The position numbers were made by a program, and so were the translations under genes. 20,000 nucleotides of DNA from an uncultured virus (IMG/VR IMGVR_UViG_3300042342_001499) (Duplodnaviria > Heunggongvirae > Uroviricota > Caudoviricetes), in IMG/VR virus record IMGVR_UViG_3300042342_001499. The stretch is one strand, 5' to 3'. This document shows positions 5,044-19,895 of this stretch, piece by piece. The notes beneath the pieces were generated by a model. The model was given only the letters and a program-made list of their open reading frames with translations. It did not search any database and had not been told where the DNA came from. Numbering within the stretch: the stretch's first letter is position 1; each line of letters opens with the position of its first letter.

Positions 5044-6537
5044 TTATTGAAATTCTGCTCGAACAACTTGATTGATAATTGACGATACCTCTTTCGGTAA
5101 AAGCTTCAAATCGTTAACCACTTTCGAATACGTGTAAAGCTCTTTGACGTGGTCTGCTTGAATACCAATTCCGACCGTGACAAATTCGTCTCTTCTTGCT
5201 CGTTCAAGGATTCGTTTAAGTTCTTCGTTATGCTCTTGACCTCCATAATTGTTTCCTGAAGGTTCACCGTCGGATAGAGAGATGAAGATTATTCTGTCGT
5301 CATTAGTCTCTCGTACCTTCTTGTGAATAGCTTCGATAACTGGTCCGTCGTAATTCTGACACCAATGTACGTTATGGTAAAATTTGATATTCTTTTCGTA
5401 ATCGGTGTCGTACGGAGAATAGAAAGTGAAAATCTCAGGAGTGTAATCTCCGCTATGTCCGTAGATGTATAATTTATCCGGAGGTAGAATTTGACTCATT
5501 GCGAGATAAAGCGTATTCATAATATGACGTTGAGACTGAACACGATTTCCGTGTCCCATGCTACCTGACATATCGGCTAATATACATACGGAGAAAGGCT
5601 TCGTATCTTGTTCCTCTACCCTCTGTTTGTATATCGATAGATTTCCTGCAGGGACCTCGGCTATTTTAGATGTGTCAAGTTTTCCGAGTTTAAGGTTCTT
5701 AACCTCATCGCTCTTAGGATCGAAATTGATATCCAATAGTTTGATTAAAAGTTCCGAATCTCTCTTCTCCTCCGCGTTGAATTGATAGCTAGCTCCTGAG
5801 TCTTTTTTATCGAAGGCAGTGAATTTAGGCTTTTCGGAGAATGCAGTTAAACTTCTCTCGGCTACACTCCATGGCTTACTCTCGTTAATCTCCCCCATTA
5901 AACCTTGTATCGACTTACCGCTTTTTCCTTTAGGAGCTTCTTTACCTTCGGCCGGACTTCCACTTTCGCTTTCTTTCTCGTCTTCGCCATCACCTTCACC
6001 ATCTCCTTGACCTTCACCATCACCTTCGCCTTCTTCTTCTTTCTCTCCCTGTGGTTGACCTTCGCCTTCTCCCTCACCTTCTTTCTTTCCTTTGCCTTCC
6101 TCTGGCTTAGGTTCTTGAATTTCCATTTCGATTGTACTTGATAAGATCGAATCCTTATAGTGTTCGAACATAGGCGCCATCTCAGGATAGGATGAGCAAA
6201 TCGTACTTAAGATAGCTAGGTTATTCAAAGACACTACCGAATACTTCTTAACGGTCGTTCCGAAGAAAGAAGGTCTTTCGATAACCTTTGAAGTGAATTT
6301 GTCAATTAGACCTTTCTCTTTCGCCTTAAGAATGTAAAGCTTAATAAGCTTCTCCGCTTGCCATGTTCCTAATTCCCTAGCTGCTTCTCCGCTTGCTTTA
6401 ATATCCAAATCGAAGTCGATTTTAATATACGGATAATCATTAAGAACTCGAGTAAATCCACCGAAGTGAGAATTTTCCCATCCTGAAGTTGATTTGTAAC
6501 CTCCGCCCCAGCCACCCCATTGTTTGTATCCTGCCAT
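5044..6537 (-). CDS. vWA (MIDAS) domain protein, CobT/NorD-like partner of the AAA+ ATPase
   Basis: MIDAS DMSGSM and later LSDGEP; Glu/Gly-rich linker; adjacent to a MoxR-type ATPase. Confidence 0.85.
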   Translation of the reverse strand: MAGYKQWGGWGGGYKSTSGWENSHFGGFTRVLNDYPYIKIDFDLDIKASGEAARELGTWQAEKLIKLYILKAKEKGLIDKFTSKVIERPSFFGTTVKKYSVVSLNNLAILSTICSSYPEMAPMFEHYKDSILSSTIEMEIQEPKPEEGKGKKEGEGEGEGQPQGEKEEEGEGDGEGQGDGEGDGEDEKESESGSPAEGKEAPKGKSGKSIQGLMGEINESKPWSVAERSLTAFSEKPKFTAFDKKDSGASYQFNAEEKRDSELLIKLLDINFDPKSDEVKNLKLGKLDTSKIAEVPAGNLSIYKQRVEEQDTKPFSVCILADMSGSMGHGNRVQSQRHIMNTLYLAMSQILPPDKLYIYGHSGDYTPEIFTFYSPYDTDYEKNIKFYHNVHWCQNYDGPVIEAIHKKVRETNDDRIIFISLSDGEPSGNNYGGQEHNEELKRILERARRDEFVTVGIGIQADHVKELYTYSKVVNDLKLLPKEVSSIINQVVRAEFQ

Positions 6538-6547
6538 ATCTCTTTTG

Positions 6548-6599
6548 TTTAATTGGTTAAGACAAATATATAGATTTTTCTACAATATAAAAAATGATT
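6548..6599 (-). promoter_or_regulatory. early promoter/leader repeat, canonical
   Basis: Nearly identical to 1441-1492. Confidence 0.85.
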
Positions 6600-6644: not shown

Positions 6645-7685
6645 CTACTTAGCAGATTCGTCTAAGATAGATTTGATACTTTTAAGACCTTCTTGACTTC
6701 CGAGACCTTTGCAGAGTACGACGAAACCGTCATAGATTGTAAAGCCGTTAGAAACCAATTTCGTAATTGTCTTAAGGTGACGAAGAGAAAGGTTGAACGA
6801 GATTTTGAACTCGTCATGCTCCTTATTGATTTGATTGAAGACGGAAACCAATTTTTTGATTTTATCTGCGGCCACTGTCGGAAACTCAGATTTTAGAGTT
6901 GACTCGATATCTTTTGTGTTAATCGAATCAACCTCAATTAGCATGAATCGGTCAAGTAATGCACGGTCTAACTTGTGCGTTCCTGTGTATTGACTACCCA
7001 TGTTAGCCGTCGAGAAGAACACGCAGTTAGGGTGTATTTTTACTGGTGTCGTATCGTGGAACGAATACTCCATCGGTAATTCTCTTCGGAAGTCGAGACA
7101 AGGAAATAACAGGTTGTTTGCCATCGCTCCAGCTCTGGAGATTTCGTCTAAGAGTACGATACCAGGTTTTTGAATAACCTCGGAGAAACGAGAACGTTTG
7201 AATTCCGATTTTGTTACTCCGTCTTCCACTGAGATAACGTGATTTCCCACAAGACCCATTATGGGATCGGTCATTGTACCCATGTCGAAGATAGTCAGTG
7301 GCAGGTCGAACACTTTTGCAAGATTCGCAACAACTTCTGTTTTGCCCGTTCCTGTTGCCCCGATAAGCATAGTACTAACTCCGAACTCGATATTGTGTTT
7401 AGCAATCTCAAATGTGCCCGCTTCCATTTTGAAGTACCCATTCAATGTGACCGTGGTACCAGCCAGTACAGCCAACTTAGGATCCGCTTTCAAACGAGGT
7501 GTATCGTTTATCGCCTCCACAGCTTCCGATAGTATCGTTTTTCTTCTCCTAAGAGATTCGGAGATCTTTGCCTTAGCTTCATCGCTCATAGGCTTTCTTA
7601 CCTTCGGGCTAGCTTCTGATGCCGCTGCCAAATCTAGGATTTCTAACGTTTCCGTTTTTACTTCTGCTTTTTTTGTTCTTGCCAT
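6645..7685 (-). CDS. MoxR/CobS/CbbQ-type AAA+ ATPase (AAA_5) with basic N-terminal extension
   Basis: Walker A GATGTGKT, Walker B VLLDEISR, sensor TAN, LDRALLDRF, SLRHL. Confidence 0.9.
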   Translation of the reverse strand: MARTKKAEVKTETLEILDLAAASEASPKVRKPMSDEAKAKISESLRRRKTILSEAVEAINDTPRLKADPKLAVLAGTTVTLNGYFKMEAGTFEIAKHNIEFGVSTMLIGATGTGKTEVVANLAKVFDLPLTIFDMGTMTDPIMGLVGNHVISVEDGVTKSEFKRSRFSEVIQKPGIVLLDEISRAGAMANNLLFPCLDFRRELPMEYSFHDTTPVKIHPNCVFFSTANMGSQYTGTHKLDRALLDRFMLIEVDSINTKDIESTLKSEFPTVAADKIKKLVSVFNQINKEHDEFKISFNLSLRHLKTITKLVSNGFTIYDGFVVLCKGLGSQEGLKSIKSILDESAK

Positions 7686-7696
7686 TTTTATATAGT

Positions 7697-7751
7697 TTTA
7701 ATTGGTTTACTTAGCTAATGTAGAATAATCTACTTGATAAAAAAAATGATT
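7697..7751 (-). promoter_or_regulatory. early promoter repeat, TTAG subtype
   Basis: TACATTAGCTAAGTAAACCAATTAAA. Confidence 0.75.
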
Positions 7752-9177: not shown

Positions 9178-9324
9178 TTAATTATTAATTTCGATTGTAA
9201 TTGTAAAGCCTGAACCGAATGCCATTCTATACTCTGCTGCTAAATATTCTGCAGAACTAAGGGAGTCAGCGGTATCTATTACTTCCCTTCCGTAACGCGA
9301 TATTGATATGATTTTGTATTTCAT
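9178..9324 (-). CDS. 48-aa hypothetical protein (MKYKIISISRYGREVIDTADSLSSAEYLAAEYRMAFGSGF...)
   Basis: Manual translation, below the ORF-track cutoff; fills the gap between promoter 9333-9384 and the next gene. Confidence 0.75.
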   Translation of the reverse strand: MKYKIISISRYGREVIDTADSLSSAEYLAAEYRMAFGSGFTITIEINN

Positions 9325-9332
9325 TAGTGTGT

Positions 9333-9384
9333 TTTAATTGGTTAAGACAAATATAGAAAAATCTATTTGATTAAAAAAATGATT
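9333..9384 (-). promoter_or_regulatory. early promoter/leader repeat, canonical
   Basis: TATATTTGTCTTAACCAATTAAA. Confidence 0.85.
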
Positions 9385-10310: not shown

Positions 10311-10784
10311 TTATTTTTTAAGAGATTCTAAAGCTTTGATTAAAGAATCTAATTGATCATTATCCAAATTCTTAAATGGTTCTATTAGGGATTTAGCATC
10401 GAATAATAATTTGTTATATTTAGATTCATCAAATCCATAAATTTCAAAATCATCAATGGAAAGATCTTCTAATGGTGTTTCAACATTTTCTTCAAAATCT
10501 CCAAGATCTATTCCTAAAGATTCTAATTCATCAGGAGTTAATTCTAAAGTTGTTCTCAATTCCCATTTATCAAATCCGCCATCCCCATCTATCCTTTCAA
10601 ATTCTTTAAAATTTCCCCAAGAACTTCCCCAATTGCCTTCAAATGTTTTTAAGATAGATGTCATGAAATTGCGATTTGGAGCAATGAATGCCACGATGTC
10701 ATTTCTAGTGTAATGACCCATCCCAGTTCTTGAAGATACATGATCATAAACATAAAGTGTTGGAACTCCTTTTGATTTTTTCAT
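10311..10784 (-). CDS. hypothetical protein, acidic C-terminal half
   Basis: 157-aa ORF with its own promoter repeat. Confidence 0.85.
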   Translation of the reverse strand: MKKSKGVPTLYVYDHVSSRTGMGHYTRNDIVAFIAPNRNFMTSILKTFEGNWGSSWGNFKEFERIDGDGGFDKWELRTTLELTPDELESLGIDLGDFEENVETPLEDLSIDDFEIYGFDESKYNKLLFDAKSLIEPFKNLDNDQLDSLIKALESLKK

Positions 10785-10795
10785 TTTTTATATGT

Positions 10796-10847
10796 TTTAA
10801 TTGGTTAGGACAAATATAGAAAATTCTATTTAATTAAAAAAATGATT
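10796..10847 (-). promoter_or_regulatory. early promoter/leader repeat, canonical
   Basis: TATATTTGTCCTAACCAATTAAA. Confidence 0.85.
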
Positions 10848-11446: not shown

Positions 11447-11668
11447 TTATTCTTTAGGTAACAAATGACAGAAAGTTGCTCTTCCTGTGCGCTTAACTAC
11501 ATCACCATCAAATGAATTGTACTCCATCTCGGTGGCTTTCTTAAAAGGTAACTCTTGATCTAGGAAAGAATTAACAATCATCAACTCCTCATCTGATCCT
11601 CTATCAACCGCTATAACCCCTATAATCTTACCTCTTGCGTTTTCGATCTTTATGAAATTGATTTCCAT
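11447..11668 (-). CDS. hypothetical protein
   Basis: 73-aa ORF after promoter 11678-11729. Confidence 0.8.
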   Translation of the reverse strand: MEINFIKIENARGKIIGVIAVDRGSDEELMIVNSFLDQELPFKKATEMEYNSFDGDVVKRTGRATFCHLLPKE

Positions 11669-11677
11669 AATGCTCTG

Positions 11678-11729
11678 TTTAATTGGTTATATCAAATATA
11701 TAGAATATTCCACAAAAATAAAAATGATT
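11678..11729 (-). promoter_or_regulatory. early promoter/leader repeat
   Basis: TATATTTGATATAACCAATTAAA. Confidence 0.8.
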
Positions 11730-11775
11730 TCCAAGAAAGTTTTAAACTGAAGGTTTCTAGGATCCCTATGAATCC

Positions 11776-11789
11776 CTGGGGTTCCTCAG
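11776..11789. repeat. palindromic element CTGGGG-TT-CCTCAG
   Basis: CCCTGGGGTTCCTCAGGAA identical to 2934-2952. Confidence 0.75.
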
Positions 11790-12586: not shown

Positions 12587-12642
12587 CTGGTTTTGTTTCT
12601 TAATACAAATATATGTAGATTTTTCTAATTAAAAAAATGATT
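12587..12642 (-). promoter_or_regulatory. early promoter repeat
   Basis: AATCATTTTTTTAATTAGAAAAATCTACATATATTTG. Confidence 0.75.
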
Positions 12643-13328
12643 TAATTAAAAAGTCCAAACCGACCTAACATACTAACTCCTGGTCGTATAGCCTCAGGAA
12701 TATGAGGAGCAATCAATTTCCATTCTTCCTCACTCATTTCGTTTCTTAAACTCGCTGCTGCTGACAAAAAAGAATCACCCTCTTTCATTTTATCAAATAT
12801 TGTCACTAATGTTTTCGCGGAGACTGGATTGACGTCACACCAGAACTTCCCTAAATGAACATTGAGTGTTGCTCCCTCAAGTGAGGCGAGACGATTTCTG
12901 TCACACCAGAAACCCCTGCCAACACTCTGTGGTGCTCCCACAAGTGAGATGAGCTGATTGTTGCTACAAGAGAACTCACTACCAACCTTGAGTGGTGCTC
13001 CCACAAGTGAGGTGAGGCGATTGCCGTCACAATGGAAAAGCCCTTTAACCTTATGTGGTGCTCCCACAAGTGAGGTGAGCTGATTGTTTGTACAAGAGAA
13101 ACTCCCTCTAACCTTCTGTGGTGCTCCCACAAGTGAGGCGAGTGAATTGTTGTCACACAAGAAATCCCCCGTAACCTTTCCGAACTTAACACCTTTAAAA
13201 TCTGAAAGTCCCTGAAATGAACAAATGAAATCCCCAAACACATCAACAAGTCCAGTCTGGAGGTTTAGAGTACATCCTTTAGCACATTTGTCGAGCCAAT
13301 TGATTTGTTCTTGGGTTAGAGAGGTCAT
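12642..13328 (-). CDS. 22-aa leucine-rich-repeat protein, paralog 2 (5 repeats)
   Basis: Repeats of NxLxSLVGAPxKVxxxFxC; 66-bp nucleotide periodicity. Confidence 0.85.
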   Translation of the reverse strand: MTSLTQEQINWLDKCAKGCTLNLQTGLVDVFGDFICSFQGLSDFKGVKFGKVTGDFLCDNNSLASLVGAPQKVRGSFSCTNNQLTSLVGAPHKVKGLFHCDGNRLTSLVGAPLKVGSEFSCSNNQLISLVGAPQSVGRGFWCDRNRLASLEGATLNVHLGKFWCDVNPVSAKTLVTIFDKMKEGDSFLSAAASLRNEMSEEEWKLIAPHIPEAIRPGVSMLGRFGLFN

Positions 13329-13336
13329 TAGAGGGT

Positions 13337-13388
13337 TTTAATTGGTTAACTCAAATATAGAAAAATCTACCCAATTAAAAAAATGATT
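13337..13388 (-). promoter_or_regulatory. early promoter/leader repeat, canonical
   Basis: TATATTTGAGTTAACCAATTAAA. Confidence 0.85.
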
Positions 13389-14401: not shown

Positions 14402-15277
14402 TTATTCTTCGTTTACCGCAATGGTGTTTTTAATGCGCTCAGCAAATTCGTAATTCTCGTCTTGAACTGCCATCTGCTCCATAACCTCTAGAACCACTTT
14501 CGGAAATTCATCAAGTACGCCTTTATCATACACATAGCGTATTGAATTAATCTCGTAATCTTCTAACTCGTCAGCAGTCTCAGCTTCAATCTCATATAAA
14601 CGGTCAAGGAACCATTCAGGAGAGCCTTGAATATCTGCGGCTAATTCATGAGCTTCATTTGAACCACCCTCCGGTGTGTACTCTTCGACTAAATCTCCTG
14701 CTTGAAATGTGTACTCGCCGCAATTGTGACCAAAGTCCTCATCCGCATATCTCATACTAATAACTGCTTCCGGATACTTACGGCTTAAAGCCTCTATTAC
14801 TGGATAAGGTGTACTCCACGCGGTTTCAAATGCGATCTCGTTACTTCCTTCGTCTGACGACTGAGAGTAAGCGTTCCATTTAGTACCCCAGTTAGCATTA
14901 CTCCATGAGTACCAATCTTGGTGTCCGTATAATCTCACGTTATCCAAAGCCTTCTGAGCCTCTTCTAAATTAGCAAGCCCCTTATCACACATATGCGTGA
15001 TTAAATCATCCTCTGTCGCAAACTCAGTCGCCCAATTGAACTCCATTATCTTTCTGATATCGGAAGGGTCACCTGCACGCCACTTTAAAATAGCAATGCC
15101 ATTACTTGTGGAACTACCACTTGTGATATTTAATGTGTCCGGACGAGGTACGATTTTATTGAAATCAATAAACCTAGGCTCTCCGTCTTCATATTCACCA
15201 GCGATCTCTGATTTAATTCTAGCGACTAATTCTTCTGGTCCTGTGATTGTTAAAATGTTCGTTACGTGATTTGGCAT
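14402..15277 (-). CDS. YubB/DUF1281-like ferredoxin-fold protein with C-terminal UVR-like motif
   Basis: MPNHVTNILTITG, DFNKIVPRP, WYSWSNANWGTKWNA, FETAWSTP; ends MAVQDENYEFAERIKNTI. Confidence 0.8.
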   Translation of the reverse strand: MPNHVTNILTITGPEELVARIKSEIAGEYEDGEPRFIDFNKIVPRPDTLNITSGSSTSNGIAILKWRAGDPSDIRKIMEFNWATEFATEDDLITHMCDKGLANLEEAQKALDNVRLYGHQDWYSWSNANWGTKWNAYSQSSDEGSNEIAFETAWSTPYPVIEALSRKYPEAVISMRYADEDFGHNCGEYTFQAGDLVEEYTPEGGSNEAHELAADIQGSPEWFLDRLYEIEAETADELEDYEINSIRYVYDKGVLDEFPKVVLEVMEQMAVQDENYEFAERIKNTIAVNEE

Positions 15278-16229
15278 ATTCCTTTGTTTAATTGGTTAAG
15301 ACAAATATATAGAATTTTCTACAAAGAAAAAAATGATTCCTTAAATTTTTAATTCTTTTTCAAGCCACATAAATAAATGATTTAATTCATCCCTTCCTAT
15401 CCCATTAATAATCGGTATAACTTGTTTTCCTATTCTTGAAGCATTGAAGAATAACTTTCTGTAGGAGTCGTCACTTATAGAATACAATTGGGGAGTATAG
15501 AGATGAAACAGAAAACTTGGTTTTATTAATTCAGCAAGTCTTTCAGAAGTGATTACTTTACTTTCGACCAAAGAATAAGTATATGTAAATTCACCATTGT
15601 CATCTGTGGCTTCTTTAGAAAATTCAAATTTATTTTTTTTAATCTTCCTTAATTTCTTAATTCTATCTTTTCCGTAATCATCATTATATTCTCTTTCCCA
15701 TTCAGTTTCTTTTTCTAAAAGACCTTTGAGCTGCTTTTCGTCAACCACATCTTTGGAAACAATAATGAAATAATTAACCACTTCTTCGTCTATATCTCTA
15801 TAATCGTCCTCCTCTTTTCTGCATTCTTCAACCAAAGAGATAATTAGCTCCTTGTTTTCATCCTTTAAAGCTTGTAGCTTTACTTGGAGCTCTTTTTGGT
15901 CAGCCTTCTTACTTGATAGCTTTAGACTCTCAATAGCTTTAATAGCTTTAGTCTCTATATCGACGTCTAATATATCTGCCATTTCTAAAAGATTAATACC
16001 TAAAGAAACACAAAGATCATCTAATATAGCCATTGGTATAGAAGTAGGACTGGTCTTTAGCGAATCTAAAAGATCTTCATTTATAGAAATTTGATCTCTC
16101 TCGATGTTTGCTAAAGCAATTTTAGAAATCCCTTTTTTTAATGCTTTAATTTTTTCGTATTTTTCCATATTCCTTTGTTTAATTGGTTAACTCAAATATA
16201 TGGAATTTTCTACAAAGAAAAAAATGATT
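15275..16229. repeat. 64-bp direct repeat (15275-15338 and 16166-16229, 3 mismatches) flanking gene 15341..16168; each copy is promoter, leader and ATG
   Basis: CATATTCCTTTGTTTAATTGGTTAA(GA/CT)CAAATATAT(A/G)GAATTTTCTACAAAGAAAAAAATGATT. Confidence 0.9.
15341..16168 (-). CDS. hypothetical protein, possible N-terminal XRE-like HTH plus coiled coil
   Basis: IPMAILDDLCVSLGINLLEM resembles the C-terminal helices of XRE; K/E-rich central helix. Confidence 0.7.
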   Translation of the reverse strand: MEKYEKIKALKKGISKIALANIERDQISINEDLLDSLKTSPTSIPMAILDDLCVSLGINLLEMADILDVDIETKAIKAIESLKLSSKKADQKELQVKLQALKDENKELIISLVEECRKEEDDYRDIDEEVVNYFIIVSKDVVDEKQLKGLLEKETEWEREYNDDYGKDRIKKLRKIKKNKFEFSKEATDDNGEFTYTYSLVESKVITSERLAELIKPSFLFHLYTPQLYSISDDSYRKLFFNASRIGKQVIPIINGIGRDELNHLFMWLEKELKI

Positions 16230-16753
16230 TATGACATTTTTGTATCATAACGATTAATCAATTTCAGAATCGTCTCCTGGTGTTTGTACTCGTACACACT
16301 CATAAGGGCTAACCAATAGATATGTTCCACCTTGCCTAATACGATAACATCAGGTGTAGCGAAAGGTGTTCGATCTGCTGCCACTTGTTGTAGGCTTCGT
16401 AATTGACCGATACCAACTTGAAGTTTCATATGACCTTCGGGATCCACACCGTCTAAAATACGATCCAAAGCAATTCCTGTTTTTGATTCGACCTCTTCAA
16501 CATCCACTCCGAAGAATTCGCCAGATCCTAATTGACCTCCTAAATCCTGATACATCTTATTGTGAATCCGAGACATGTCCCCATACACATTCTGAACATC
16601 GTTCCAGAATAAATCGAACCTCTTCTCACTGCGGTCTAACATATCACCTGCACCATCGAGTATACGTGCCATACGCTTACTCTTATCATTACCACGTGCA
16701 AGGTCATCAACGATACCTCTTAAAGACGCAATTAAAATAGTTTTTGATTCCAT
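16229..16753 (-). CDS. hypothetical protein
   Basis: 174-aa ORF between promoter repeats. Confidence 0.85.
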   Translation of the reverse strand: MESKTILIASLRGIVDDLARGNDKSKRMARILDGAGDMLDRSEKRFDLFWNDVQNVYGDMSRIHNKMYQDLGGQLGSGEFFGVDVEEVESKTGIALDRILDGVDPEGHMKLQVGIGQLRSLQQVAADRTPFATPDVIVLGKVEHIYWLALMSVYEYKHQETILKLINRYDTKMS

Positions 16754-16763
16754 AGTTTCCCCT

Positions 16764-16810
16764 TTTGTTTAAACAAATATAAGAGATTATTCTAAATAAA
16801 AAAAATGATT
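16764..16810 (-). promoter_or_regulatory. early promoter repeat
   Basis: AATCATTTTTTTT...TATATTTG. Confidence 0.75.
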
Positions 16811-16872
16811 CATAGAAATTTCTATAAATTTATCGCGGAATCCGAGCGGCTCGCACTACGGAATCCGACTGC

Positions 16873-16964
16873 CGGATTACACCCTGGGGTTCCCCAAGAA
16901 TTCTGCGGATGCAACGCAGAGAAAATCCGGATGTGGCTGCGGATTACCCACGGGGGTTCCTCAG
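16873..16964. repeat. two CTGRGG-NN-CCYCAG-type palindromes, each preceded by CGGATTAC
   Basis: CTGGGGTTCCCCAA at 16884 and CGGGGGTTCCTCAG at 16951; GAATTCTGCGGATGC follows both the 16884 and 4948 copies. Confidence 0.65.
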
Positions 16965-17005
16965 TCGTCATCGATTCGGTTAGAAATTTCTAAATAAACC
17001 CCCAC

Positions 17006-17033
17006 AAAAAAACCGAGACGAATCTCGGTTTTT
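17006..17033. terminator. intrinsic terminator
   Basis: Minus strand AAAAACCGAGA-TTCG-TCTCGGTTTTTTT. Confidence 0.85.
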
Positions 17034-17088
17034 ACTAACCAATATAAACCTAAACAATATATAAGCGAAACCTGAGTGTGATTTCACA
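17006..17088 (-). ncRNA. candidate ~80-nt small RNA
   Basis: TATATTTG box at 17092-17099 and terminator at 17006-17033, with no ORF between them. Confidence 0.5.
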
Positions 17089-17144
17089 TTGCAAATATAA
17101 CACATTCTTTGCGGATAAAAAAATTTATCTCGGATAAATACAGT

Positions 17145-17576
17145 ATGCGGACAATTAAACTATACGAAAATTTCGGACAAGATCGCCTCGCCTTCTCTAG
17201 CAAGGTGGGTAGGGAAGACACACACCTCACTCTCTATGACGAACCAATGGATATGAGAAATGCATTGATCAATGGCGGAGTGGTTAATTGGGATATTGCT
17301 TTCTCCAAGAAATCATGGGGAATCGCACTAGGTGACACACCCACCACTATCACATCTATGAGATTTGATTACGAAGTGGAAGACGAAGACAATGAGGACG
17401 GAGATTACGTAGAGAAAGAGTGGGAAATCCCAGAAGGTGTCTTCTCTCCTGAGCAATTCACCACAGAGCTTAACAAGTTCCCTCTTTACCTTGAAGCTGT
17501 TGATATCAATATGAGACACACAATGGATCCTAAGTTCTGGAAGATCACTCTCTATTTAGGCGGAGACCAGCATTAA
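17145..17576 (+). CDS. acidic hypothetical protein starting MRTIKLYENF, possibly late or virion-associated
   Basis: Likely ATG at 17145 preceded by GATAAATA (17133-17140); the only complete plus-strand gene I accept. Confidence 0.8.
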   Translation: MRTIKLYENFGQDRLAFSSKVGREDTHLTLYDEPMDMRNALINGGVVNWDIAFSKKSWGIALGDTPTTITSMRFDYEVEDEDNEDGDYVEKEWEIPEGVFSPEQFTTELNKFPLYLEAVDINMRHTMDPKFWKITLYLGGDQH

Positions 17577-17650
17577 TTCTTAGAAATTTCTACAAACATT
17601 ACCCCTTCGCACACGTATCCGCGCGGGGTCCCCACCAGGTCGGTCCTCAC

Positions 17651-17678
17651 AAAAAACCCCAGATCGAAATCCGGGGTT
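17651..17678 (-). terminator. intrinsic terminator
   Basis: Minus strand AACCCCGGAT-TTCG-ATCTGGGGTTTTTT. Confidence 0.85.
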
Positions 17679-17688
17679 AATCAAATAG

Positions 17689-18327
17689 TTATTTACTCAT
17701 CTTAACCTCAGTGCCTTCAGACGTCACACTCACGGTGATGTTAACACCGAACTCTTTAACGATCTGAGCAAGCTGTGTCAATTCTATAGCGTTGCTAGAG
17801 TGGGAAGGCACACTCACATGTGTCTTTACCGATTCCACAATTGCTTCGATAGCTGGAGCAGAGATCGCATTCTCCATTGGCTTACGTACTCGAGTGATGC
17901 CAGTAGGAGTTACAAATCTTGTCTCCGGATCAACAATGAATCCCTCATCGATCAATTGACTCTTATGACAGTAGATAGCTGCAGCACTACGACCTAATAA
18001 ATCAACAGTCTCTTCCACTGTCATCTTACTAAGCACTGCTTCTCTTAACATCTCATCTTCAGCCTGCGTCCATCTTCGATTTGAATTAGGAGTTATTTTA
18101 TTCTGACTAGATTTACGTATCTTACGTCCATTCTTAGTGGTAGGGGTTTTAATAGTGCCATCTGGTAAGTAACGTGTACCTCTCGGTCTCACTTTGTTAC
18201 CTAAGATTCTTCGTAGAGTCTCAGGATTAATGTTATGTGTTAACGCCACTTCTTTCAAAGTTCTGTTACCAGTCACATAGTCTCTGGTTGCTGCAGTCTT
18301 AACTGCCTTGGTGATAATTCTCGCCAT
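17689..18327 (-). CDS. DNA-binding protein with N-terminal HTH and Myb/GcrA-like HTH
   Basis: TLKEVALTHNINPETLRRIL; RWTQAEDEMLREA...ETVDLLGRSAAAI. Confidence 0.75.
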   Translation of the reverse strand: MARIITKAVKTAATRDYVTGNRTLKEVALTHNINPETLRRILGNKVRPRGTRYLPDGTIKTPTTKNGRKIRKSSQNKITPNSNRRWTQAEDEMLREAVLSKMTVEETVDLLGRSAAAIYCHKSQLIDEGFIVDPETRFVTPTGITRVRKPMENAISAPAIEAIVESVKTHVSVPSHSSNAIELTQLAQIVKEFGVNITVSVTSEGTEVKMSK

Positions 18328-18348: not shown

Positions 18349-18717
18349 TTACATTTCTTCAACAAAGAACATAGCCATAGTGATACGCTTACCATTAGCT
18401 CGTGCTATCTGACGAGCTGCAGATGTCATATCCTTAGCTTGCTCTCTGGTTATTGTTTGCGGTGTATCCGCATGTGAAACCCCAGTAGGGATTTTAACCT
18501 CTTTACCACTTGAGGTCTTCACCTTAGGTGATTTAGTCTTGAACTTGATCTTCTGTGGCTTAACCAATCCCATTTGCGATTTCTGCCATGTCACAGCAGC
18601 TGGTGTGCGTCCTAACTCAGTAGAGATCTCTTCAATAGACTTTCCCTCTTTACTCATCGTCTTTAAAGTCTTACGATCTGACTTGGTCCAAACTGTCCCT
18701 TTCTTATTTGTAATCAT
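18349..18717 (-). CDS. Myb/GcrA-like HTH protein
   Basis: WTKSDRKTLKTM...SIEEISTELGRTPAAVTWQKSQMGL, similar to the second domain of the neighbouring gene. Confidence 0.75.
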   Translation of the reverse strand: MITNKKGTVWTKSDRKTLKTMSKEGKSIEEISTELGRTPAAVTWQKSQMGLVKPQKIKFKTKSPKVKTSSGKEVKIPTGVSHADTPQTITREQAKDMTSAARQIARANGKRITMAMFFVEEM

Positions 18718-18790: not shown

Positions 18791-19895
18791 CCTAGAAATA
18801 ACTCTCTCACACGAACGCGGGCACGTCACGCGTTTATATAAGAACACAAAGGAAACAAAAGACACTCGGACAAATTCCCGAGAACACCTTCGGGGTTCCC
18901 TGAGTCTCCCCGGGTTTCCCAGAGAATCCCAGATTCTCTAGGTATATCCTCGTGGAGGAGACTCAGGGATTCACACAGAAAAGGAGGTAACCAAAACAAT
19001 CCAGGAACTTCCCAGAAATTCTCTGACAATCCCTGGGATCCACTCGCAGAAAATCTAAGAGAATCCCGGATAGCGAACCAAAAAATTATTCGGGGAGACT
19101 CCGAAGATCCTTTGTAATTCCCCTAGTGAAAAAATAAAAGAAGATCTTGGATTAGATTGGATTCTCACGTGCACGTACACGCAAGGGGACCTGGGGAGGT
19201 CCCACGGGGACACACGTGGAAAGAGGGTTTAACCTTGCGCACTTTGTAGTATATTCTATATTCTTTCCACAAAGTTCCAGGGATCTCCACTAGTCTCCAC
19301 AAATCCCCACTTTCTCTCTCTAATTTCCAGGGAATTTCCAGGAGGGTTCAGAGGGGTTAAGAGGTGGAGATTTACCCTTGCCTGTGGGTCTCTACTATAA
19401 GGGACTTCTCTCATGTACTCTGTATAGAGAGAGGTGTGTGCTTATGTGAGTTCTCTATGTGGGTACTCTCTAGTAGGATGTGCACTTTATTATGTGAATT
19501 ATTTGTTTTGATTAGTTCTGATAAGGTTTCGGGTTATGTGTGTGATATAGTAATGTGTGAGTTCTCTATATAGTGATTGTGTGTCTTCTCTATGTAGGTG
19601 TTGATGTTCTTTACTCTAGTAGAGTTGTTTGTGTTATTAAAGAGCGAGGGCGTGTTTGGGGTTTTCTTTGTGTTTTGTCCCCCCTTCGAAAGGTGAGATT
19701 TTTCTCTGATTTAAGTGTGTGTTTTCCGAGTGTTTTCTGGTGGTTAAATAGAGATTTTTCTATTCCGCGCTTTGTTGAGATTTAGGATAGGTATTCGGGG
19801 CGAACTAGGTATTTCTTATAAATGAGGCGAAAAACCGGGGCAAAACGAGGCAAGTTTATAGGTGCCTGCCTCGGGGTAATGAGGCGATGTGAATA
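18791..19895. other. ~1.1 kb non-coding strand-switch region
   Basis: No credible ORF; palindrome-rich left half and G/T-skewed right half; lies between divergent genes. Confidence 0.65.

Follow-up and report, generated by a model that had tools for sequence, protein, structure and literature searches.

The window, by which we mean the whole 20,000-nt stretch of DNA that was analysed, comes from an uncultured freshwater (lake) phage of Bacteroidota. It is gene-dense, and nearly all of its genes lie on the minus strand. The octamer TAnnTTTG, described as the -7 element of the housekeeping sigma factor in Bacteroidota (PMC6847099), has 27 copies on the minus strand and four on the plus strand; promoters of the E. 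coli type show no enrichment (43 found vs. 60 expected). We found 20 cassettes on the gene strand in which a T-run is followed 15–21 nt on by a TAnnTTTG box. The typical cassette reads AATCATTTTTTT, 17 nt (often with the palindrome TAGAAAATTCTA), TATATTTG, 4 nt, AACCAATTAAA(A/C), 5–10 nt and then ATG.

The sequence behind the -7 box is a shared tag: the exact 11-mer AACCAATTAAA has 11 copies on the gene strand and none on the other strand, relative to 0.02 expected, and all 10 gene-strand TAACCAAT sites lie 4 nt behind a -7 box. In the account of Flavobacterium johnsoniae promoters that we follow, the G of the box lies at -5 (PMC6847099), which places +1 of the cassettes on the first A of AACCAAU. 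By this rule AACCAAUUAAA(C) would be the first 11–12 nt of at least 11 mRNAs of the window. In the predicted cassette leaders, the tag takes in the 5' end of the mRNA and extends over positions from about -20 to -9 relative to the AUG.

The tags lie on the minus strand in front of genes and ORFs, and are listed here with their cofold ddG (kcal/mol) with the small RNA described below. The tag AACCAATTAAA is found at 16178–16188 (predicted +1 of the mRNA of gene 15341–16168, the neighbour of gene 16229–16753; -14.8), 15287–15297 (gene 14402–15277; -14.1, with 21 of the 23 leader nt through the AUG paired), 13337–13347 (gene 12642–13328; -12.4), 11678–11688 (gene 11447–11668; -13.9), 10796–10806 (gene 10311–10784; -9.5), 9333–9343 (ORF 9178–9324; -10.0), 6548–6558 (gene 5044–6537; -13.5), 2061–2071 (gene 1492–2052; -12.4) and 1441–1451 (gene 1171–1431; -11.2). 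Two further tags stand behind other boxes, at 7697–7707 (gene 6645–7685, TACATTAG-type box; -11.3) and at 325–335 (ORF 3–314, TATATTAG-type box; -11.5). The motif is therefore wider than the four sites at 6548, 11678, 15287 and 16178 from which a preliminary description of this DNA had worked.

A second promoter class has TA(C/T)(A/T)TTAG instead of TATATTTG, followed by ctaa-GTAAACCAATTAAA, with boxes at 343, 7715, 8140 and 10251 on the minus strand and many more in the loci L033–L036. Since ctaa precedes GTAAACCAATTAAA in this class, the tag would start 3 nt into the mRNA. Separately, the paralogous genes 1492–2052 and 12642–13328 contain tandem 63-nt (21-aa) repeats, at 1705–1889 and 12858–13168, respectively, and their upstream regions are 85% alike.

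One transcription unit of this kind encodes no protein. On the minus strand, a TTATCC element (17132–17137), present in all five sequence types described below, occupies the place of the cassette AATCA and is followed by a seven-T run (17117–17123), 17 nt upstream of the -7 box, the same spacing as in the gene cassettes. The box itself, TATATTTG (17092–17099), is of the Bacteroidota sigma-A type, TAnnTTTG, and both the box and the C that follows it are invariant in all eight distinct sequences. Behind it lie a 5' hairpin (GUGAAAUC/GGUUUCGC, 17065–17087), whose loop contains an invariant ACUCAG, and a single-stranded G/U-rich linker of 31 nt (17034–17064), which both the MFE and the centroid structure leave unpaired and which includes the proposed seed GUUUAUAUUGGUUA (17049–17036). 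The unit ends in an intrinsic terminator (17006–17033; A5, CCGAGA, UUCG, UCUCGG, U7), with the stem-loop and U7 at 17028–17006. Hence, the preliminary description was right that a TATATTTG promoter faces a strong terminator with nothing but ATG-TGA (minus strand, 17089–17084) between them and no ORF; the distance from box to terminator stem is ~57 nt.

With the same -5 rule, +1 is predicted at G17087, where the hairpin begins and the ATG ends, and the rule places +1 on the first hairpin base in all three clades compared below; the rule was worked out in another organism, F. johnsoniae. Because the predicted +1 is the G of that ATG, the ATG at 17089 is probably not transcribed at all.

The promoter of the unit differs from the cassette promoters in that TTATCC replaces AATCA, and in that it has neither the TAGAAAATTCTA spacer palindrome nor the leader tag. 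Among the 20 cassette-type promoters of the window, it alone has no ORF behind it. It had been called an early-type promoter; the promoter, with its sigma-A-type -7 box, stands, and it resembles the host sigma-A type, but 'early' is an assumption, and the unit departs from the cassette promoters in the ways just given.

The 83-nt stretch 17088–17006 (the predicted RNA itself is 82 nt) folds into the 5' hairpin, 31 open nt and the terminator. We found a folding energy of -20.6 kcal/mol (z -3.67), which was equalled by 1 of 200 shuffles. In the window, the 5' hairpin, which has two G-U pairs, reaches -7.7 kcal/mol on the minus strand vs. -0.9 kcal/mol on the opposite strand; this asymmetry is smaller in one of the related phages introduced next (G001) and absent in the other (G002).

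Two large phage contigs with the cassette type of the window, G001 (248 kb) and G002 (130 kb), emerged when viral contigs were scanned for the cassette sequence. When their DNA was searched with 16760–17660 of the window, the small-RNA region was matched at 72% and 71% identity, respectively, over ~125–138 nt, and so was the neighbouring reverse-oriented ORF. All three share a gene order of HTH-like gene, reverse ORF, RNA unit and next cassette. A search with the reverse-ORF protein then gave 2 viral and 20 metagenome loci. These 22 loci were fetched, and the small-RNA unit adjoins the reverse ORF in 21 of the 21 that have at least 200 nt of flank (L023, with only 18 nt, was left out); among them, L012 and L028 are one contig filed twice, and L022 is identical to the window. 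Judged by one conserved ATPase, the nearest cultured relative is a Bacteroides phage, at 39% identity.

Across these loci the unit occurs as eight distinct sequences of five types (W, B, C, the G002 type and G001), and each type starts from a promoter and stops at an intrinsic terminator, and no ORF lies in between. Invariant in all eight are the -7 box with its C, the loop ACUCAG, UUUAG, AUUG and U7-GUG, and the spacing of the T-run is kept as well. The window, G001 and G002 have one copy of the unit each, with strong model scores of 106.5, 83.9 and 73.3 bits, one per record, and a next best score of at most 25.1 bits. Promoter, 5' hairpin, linker and terminator are thus kept between clades whose neighbouring protein is only 41–43% identical.

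The stems are maintained while their letters change. All seven consensus pairs of the 5' hairpin are held in the eight sequences, two of them with changes on both sides, and 4 of the 13 terminator pairs have changed on both sides, the distant clades rebuilding the stem with other letters. Over all stems, pairing holds in 98.7% of cells, with compensatory changes in 6 of 20 pairs (two in the hairpin and four in the terminator). The covariation score was reached by none of 500 shuffles, and slid controls pair at 64% or less; the alignment behind these values was fitted to the structure model and hence leans towards it, and it holds effectively three independent clades. The unit therefore combines a structure conserved by covariation with an open, accessible linker. 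Cross-clade conservation and compensatory stem changes both support the small non-coding transcription unit that had been proposed, and we consider it likely that the phage has a real gene for a ~82-nt non-coding RNA on the minus strand at 17087–17006, a new phage small RNA.

These data also bear on whether the unit is an empty regulatory cassette, functionless since its gene was lost by recombination between repeated promoter-terminator cassettes, as could happen with the PeSL cassettes of T4-type phages. In favour of this, repeated promoter-leader cassettes make up the window, often with a terminator in front, and PeSL recombination is described as deleting and swapping genes (PMC2839356). 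However, the unit is retained in 21/21 loci and across clades at 41–43% protein identity, with the compensatory changes noted above. Furthermore, its promoter does not reproduce the repeated cassette promoter, as that of a PeSL-like module would, and this argues against a mere PeSL-type empty cassette. Hence, we judge this explanation very improbable.

Known RNA families and wider sequence collections gave no further relatives. With gathering thresholds, no Rfam 15 family matched the unit, and the sole match in the window was a tRNA model at 787–916; with E values up to 10, the best match in 16700–17300 was rseX at 29.4 bits, below its threshold of 50. The small-RNA pattern found nothing in viral contigs beyond G001 and G002. 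Four matches to the pattern in the genome contigs of 185,579 species were all without hairpin or terminator, lay in surroundings that on reading did not resemble the unit, and were taken as chance. Near and distant DNA searches with 16000–18000 against 50,697 phage records gave no match, the flanking proteins 16229–16753 and 17689–18327 have no close relatives in the viral contigs, and the 174-aa flanking protein is absent from G001 and G002.

The tRNA match is on the minus strand and covers the full model (1–71) at 38.1 bits over 130 nt; ARAGORN finds no tRNA there, and 787–916 may be a tRNA interrupted by an insertion or intron.

Metatranscriptome assemblies touch the locus. In one (X1), contigs cover 27 of 30 bins of 16200–17700, flanks included; such contigs are blind to ends, strand and level, and may derive from DNA. 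Contigs of three others (X2–X4) cover only parts of the neighbouring gene. An assembled contig of 81 nt in X1 spans 17004–17086, nearly coinciding with the predicted RNA. Its left end (17004) is an assembly-graph branch, because it overlaps the adjoining contig by 29 nt and the other contigs overlap by ~30 nt; its right end (17086) overlaps no listed contig. We give these contigs no weight as evidence of expression.

Always beside the unit is the reverse-oriented ORF of 143 aa on the plus strand (17145–17576). Its protein is 41–43% identical to those of the G001 and G002 clades and 78–83% identical to those of types B and C. It matched no Pfam or PHROG family and had no usable Atlas match, and its AlphaFold model (pLDDT 38.7) is unusable. 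No other reverse-strand gene of the window is clearly conserved, and the ORF is without an upstream TAnnTTTG box. Its ATG is preceded at ~25 nt by a GGGGGTTCC motif in G001 and G002. A candidate plus-strand promoter reading into TAACCAATATAAAC was rejected: its box, TCGGTTTT, fits four of six positions, includes G residues, which are disfavoured, and is conserved in neither G001 nor G002.

This arrangement raises the question of whether the RNA is a cis-antisense regulator of the ORF, which would require the ORF mRNA to start left of or inside the small-RNA gene. Unit and ORF always lie side by side in divergent orientation, the gap between the ORF ATG and the -7 box is only 45 nt in the window's clade, and no TAnnTTTG box for the ORF was found reading the plus strand. 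On the other hand, no ORF promoter was identified anywhere, and G001 and G002 carry ~95 extra nt between the ORF start and the small-RNA promoter, so the overlap is not conserved. We consider this the least probable of the explanations weighed here.

On the other side, between the small-RNA terminator and the next cassette promoter, lies a GC-rich block of 150 nt (16826–16975). It is flanked by TAGAAATTTCTA palindromes (16974–16985 and 16813–16824) and contains about six ATCCG/CGGAT repeats and two GGAACCCC motifs. On the gene strand, GGAACCCC (GGGGTTCC on the plus strand) recurs between terminators and next promoters of the window; the sites are 2926–2949, 11766–11789, 16874–16897 and 16941–16964. 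At the corresponding position, G001 and G002 have three to four TGTCCGA repeats. Because the block folds no better than shuffles (z -1.4 and -1.8), its repeats are probably binding sites at the level of DNA.

The RNA could also be a cis-acting element, that is, a leader or attenuator with conditional read-through of its terminator, a put-like polymerase-modifying RNA, or a primer or activating transcript for the repeat block 16826–16975, which would then serve in replication or control. A short-repeat array precedes the next promoter in all clades, and the hairpin begins at +1, as in promoter-proximal RNA elements. Against such a role, the terminator is strong, with seven U in every type; the next gene owns a full cassette promoter; the same folding values (z -1.4 and -1.8) give the block no RNA structure beyond that of shuffles; and the turn in GC skew is ~2 kb off. 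Hence, we regard a cis-acting element as improbable.

The turn in cumulative GC skew falls in a 600-nt non-coding region (18800–19400) with many related TCCCAG/GGGTTCC motifs, which may be a control or origin region. Two neighbouring genes, 17689–18327 and 18349–18717 (minus strand), give weak helix-turn-helix matches (PHROG 323, 'D5-like transcriptional regulator', and sub-threshold Pfam HTH and GcrA); their products are candidates for binding the repeated DNA motifs nearby.

The remaining readings concern partners in trans, and the first candidate is the shared leader. The leaders at 6548, 11678, 15287 and 16178 read UAACCAAUUAAAC, and each allows 8 + 5 bp with one bulged U in the small RNA, which bears out the 12–13 bp with a one-base bulge that had been reported for these four. 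The seed block GGUUUAUAUUGGUUAG (17050–17035) is 13/16 G/U as counted by eye. We found a mean linker-leader duplex energy of -10.75 kcal/mol for the 19 leaders of the window; reversed leaders gave -8.17 kcal/mol with the same linker. Full-length cofolding of small RNA and leader gave a mean ddG of -11.4 kcal/mol, with values of -5 kcal/mol or lower for 19/19 leaders, and two leaders had 21 of 23 nt paired through the AUG. The antisense 8-mer occurs three times in the window vs. 0.66 expected.

A mean as low as -10.75 kcal/mol came from 1 of 300 dinucleotide shuffles, from 3 of 1499 genomic 31-mers of the same strand and from none of 254 AT-matched 31-mers. Hence, in the window's clade the linker is more complementary to the shared leader than chance would make it. 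The preliminary description had warned that AT richness makes chance pairing possible; the observed pairing beats that expectation in the window, as the shuffles and the AT-matched 31-mers show, but many sites outside leaders reach equal energy. In a scan of both strands, the leaders, at -15.5 to -17.3 kcal/mol, lie around the first percentile (-15.7 kcal/mol), and many non-leader sites equal them. A-rich leaders without the tag also pair well with the small RNA (ddG -15.0 and -11.9 kcal/mol).

Comparison between clades gave a different picture. Types W, B and C share one and the same 20-nt block, TTTAGGTTTATATTGGTTAG, next to a stretch of linker on its upstream side that varies; since the whole intergenic region is well conserved among these types, this identity says little. 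G001 and G002 keep the leader tag of the window, but the seed block differs from that of the window at 7/20 and 5/20 positions, respectively, so seed conservation in related phages, which had been named beforehand as a check, fails outside types W, B and C. The seed is thus neither conserved nor co-varying with its target in these two phages; this comparison covers three clades, all sharing one tag. Their linker-leader energies are weak, with means of -6.1 kcal/mol in G001 and -7.1 kcal/mol in G002.

Relative to shuffles, the linkers of G001 and G002 still stand out (3/300 each), and genomic 25-mers do as well in 124/1500 and 26/1500 cases, respectively, by which measure G001 is unremarkable. 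However, a window-like block that accumulates random substitutions still pairs as well in 268 of 400 simulations for G001 and 167 of 400 for G002. Hence, the significance against shuffles in these two phages is explained by shared ancestry. In the reverse simulation, derivatives of the two distant seed blocks matched the complementarity of the window in only 5/400 and 1/400 cases, which indicates that the window's clade sharpened the match or that the other clades lost it.

These results suggest how the RNA might act. Host sigma-A RNA polymerase would transcribe it from the TAnnTTTG promoter, and the intrinsic terminator would end it. Its open, G/U-rich linker would then pair in trans with the A/C-rich tag AACCAAUUAAA(C), 5–10 nt before the AUG of short-leadered mRNAs. 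In F. johnsoniae, adenines at -12 and -13 and an A-rich stretch from -14 to -11 are described as promoting initiation without Shine-Dalgarno pairing (PMC6847099). Since this host group dispenses with Shine-Dalgarno pairing and uses A-rich leaders, the duplex would cover both the mRNA 5' end and the A-rich determinant; the 30S subunit would be kept off, and a whole class of phage messages would be turned down together.

We tentatively regard such trans pairing with the leaders, repressing initiation of the phage's own mRNAs, as the best single mechanism that the sequence comparisons suggest, with the chances somewhat against it. Further points weigh against it: a single RNA would need to titrate dozens of mRNAs made from strong promoters, and a U-rich linker pairs with any A-rich leader. 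Hence, the earlier interpretation is supported in part: there is a small non-coding unit, and its pairing is above chance in the window's clade, but tuning of the whole regulon by one RNA stays a proposal, as the seed has diverged in G001 and G002 and non-leader sites pair equally well. In its broadest form, one small RNA would serve as an 'anti-leader' in a lytic jumbo-type phage of Hfq-less Bacteroidota, pairing with an 11-nt tag that begins dozens of mRNAs and shutting off a whole temporal class at ribosome loading; the window's clade would have sharpened its seed to 13 bp, reaching the AUG in some leaders. We think this possible but doubtful.

A real small RNA with a conserved job other than leader pairing is a serious competitor, and one that we also hold to be on the unlikely side. 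Its partners would be host mRNAs with A-rich initiation regions, or a protein that binds the invariant parts, and the 13-bp tag match of the window's clade would be a lineage-specific extra or a coincidence. What is invariant across the five types is the loop ACUCAG and UUUAG-R-UUU rather than the seed; the drift simulation gives no maintained complementarity in the distant clades; and the linker pairs about equally well with tagless A-rich leaders. In contrast, the complement of the loop (CTGAGT..) has no site common to all three phages, and the seed of the window's clade lies beyond random derivatives of the distant seeds (the 5/400 and 1/400 above), so drift alone would not yield it. The cis-acting, empty-cassette and antisense explanations are less likely than both this reading and the anti-leader one.

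Whatever its partner, the unit is a clean, testable candidate: its promoter is defined, its start and end are predicted, its structure is conserved, and a concrete tag is its proposed target. Should the anti-leader mechanism prove true, one RNA would silence the phage's own regulon in a host group that uses neither Shine-Dalgarno pairing nor Hfq, and the strikingly conserved 5' tag of these phages' mRNAs would have a function. If it fails, the unit would still be a new structured phage RNA, marked by its invariant loop ACUCAG.

Functions are known for few of the small RNAs that phages encode. We know of none for phages of Bacteroidota, and a narrow literature search found none described for them. 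Among phage RNAs, the immunity RNAs of the P1/P7 c4 and P4 CI types have their target sites within the same transcript from which they are processed. The c4 RNA is processed from the operon it controls, acts on that single operon (ant) and serves temperate-phage immunity. It is described as ~77 nt long and as blocking protein synthesis by trans base pairing on phage mRNA (PMC8546580), and the likeness lies in a phage small RNA that represses phage mRNA in trans, as proposed for the unit here. In contrast, the unit is transcribed apart from its proposed targets, between a promoter and a terminator of its own, and would affect many mRNAs; these targets are separate cassettes across the window, rather than parts of an operon from which the RNA is processed.

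Type I toxin-antitoxin systems consist of a small hydrophobic toxin ORF overlapped by an antisense RNA. The ORF beside the unit encodes 143 aa, is acidic-rich and lies ~95 nt from the RNA promoter in G001 and G002, and thus does not fit this class.

Among host RNAs, GibS of Bacteroides thetaiotaomicron is described as pairing a long single-stranded seed with initiation regions that have no Shine-Dalgarno sequence, in a phylum without Hfq or ProQ (PMC7366714). By that account, the two share a trans-encoded, AT-rich design, a long single-stranded seed, an intrinsic terminator and targets without Shine-Dalgarno sequences. GibS differs in being chromosomal and 145 nt long, with a seed at the 5' end and two validated targets (PMC7366714); as described, it is set apart from the unit, which is phage-borne, ~82 nt long, has its seed between two hairpins and is proposed to read a tag on many mRNAs. 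A second parallel is the R1 region of GcvB in enterobacteria, reported to be single-stranded, 88% G/U and paired with C/A-rich enhancers (PMC7769764). There, too, a G/U-rich seed meets C/A-rich stretches upstream of the start codons of many mRNAs, but GcvB is described as an Hfq-dependent host RNA that acts on amino-acid transporter mRNAs, and the site proposed for the unit is the 5' end of the phage's own mRNAs.

The surroundings of the unit also have a counterpart. PeSL cassettes of T4-type phages, as described, surround small genes with repeated strong promoters and terminator stem-loops, which matches the cassette architecture of the window (PMC2839356); they are sigma-70-type recombination modules and not RNA genes, unlike the conserved structured RNA found here. 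Large aquatic phages of Bacteroidota without RNA polymerase genes have been described as 'moraphages' (PMC12619734).

The small-RNA unit belongs to none of GibS, GcvB and c4. In the breadth of its proposed action it resembles a protein instead. RegA of T4 turns down many early mRNAs by binding near their start codons; the likeness is one phage factor acting on many messages, and here the factor would be an RNA that reads a common 5' tag.
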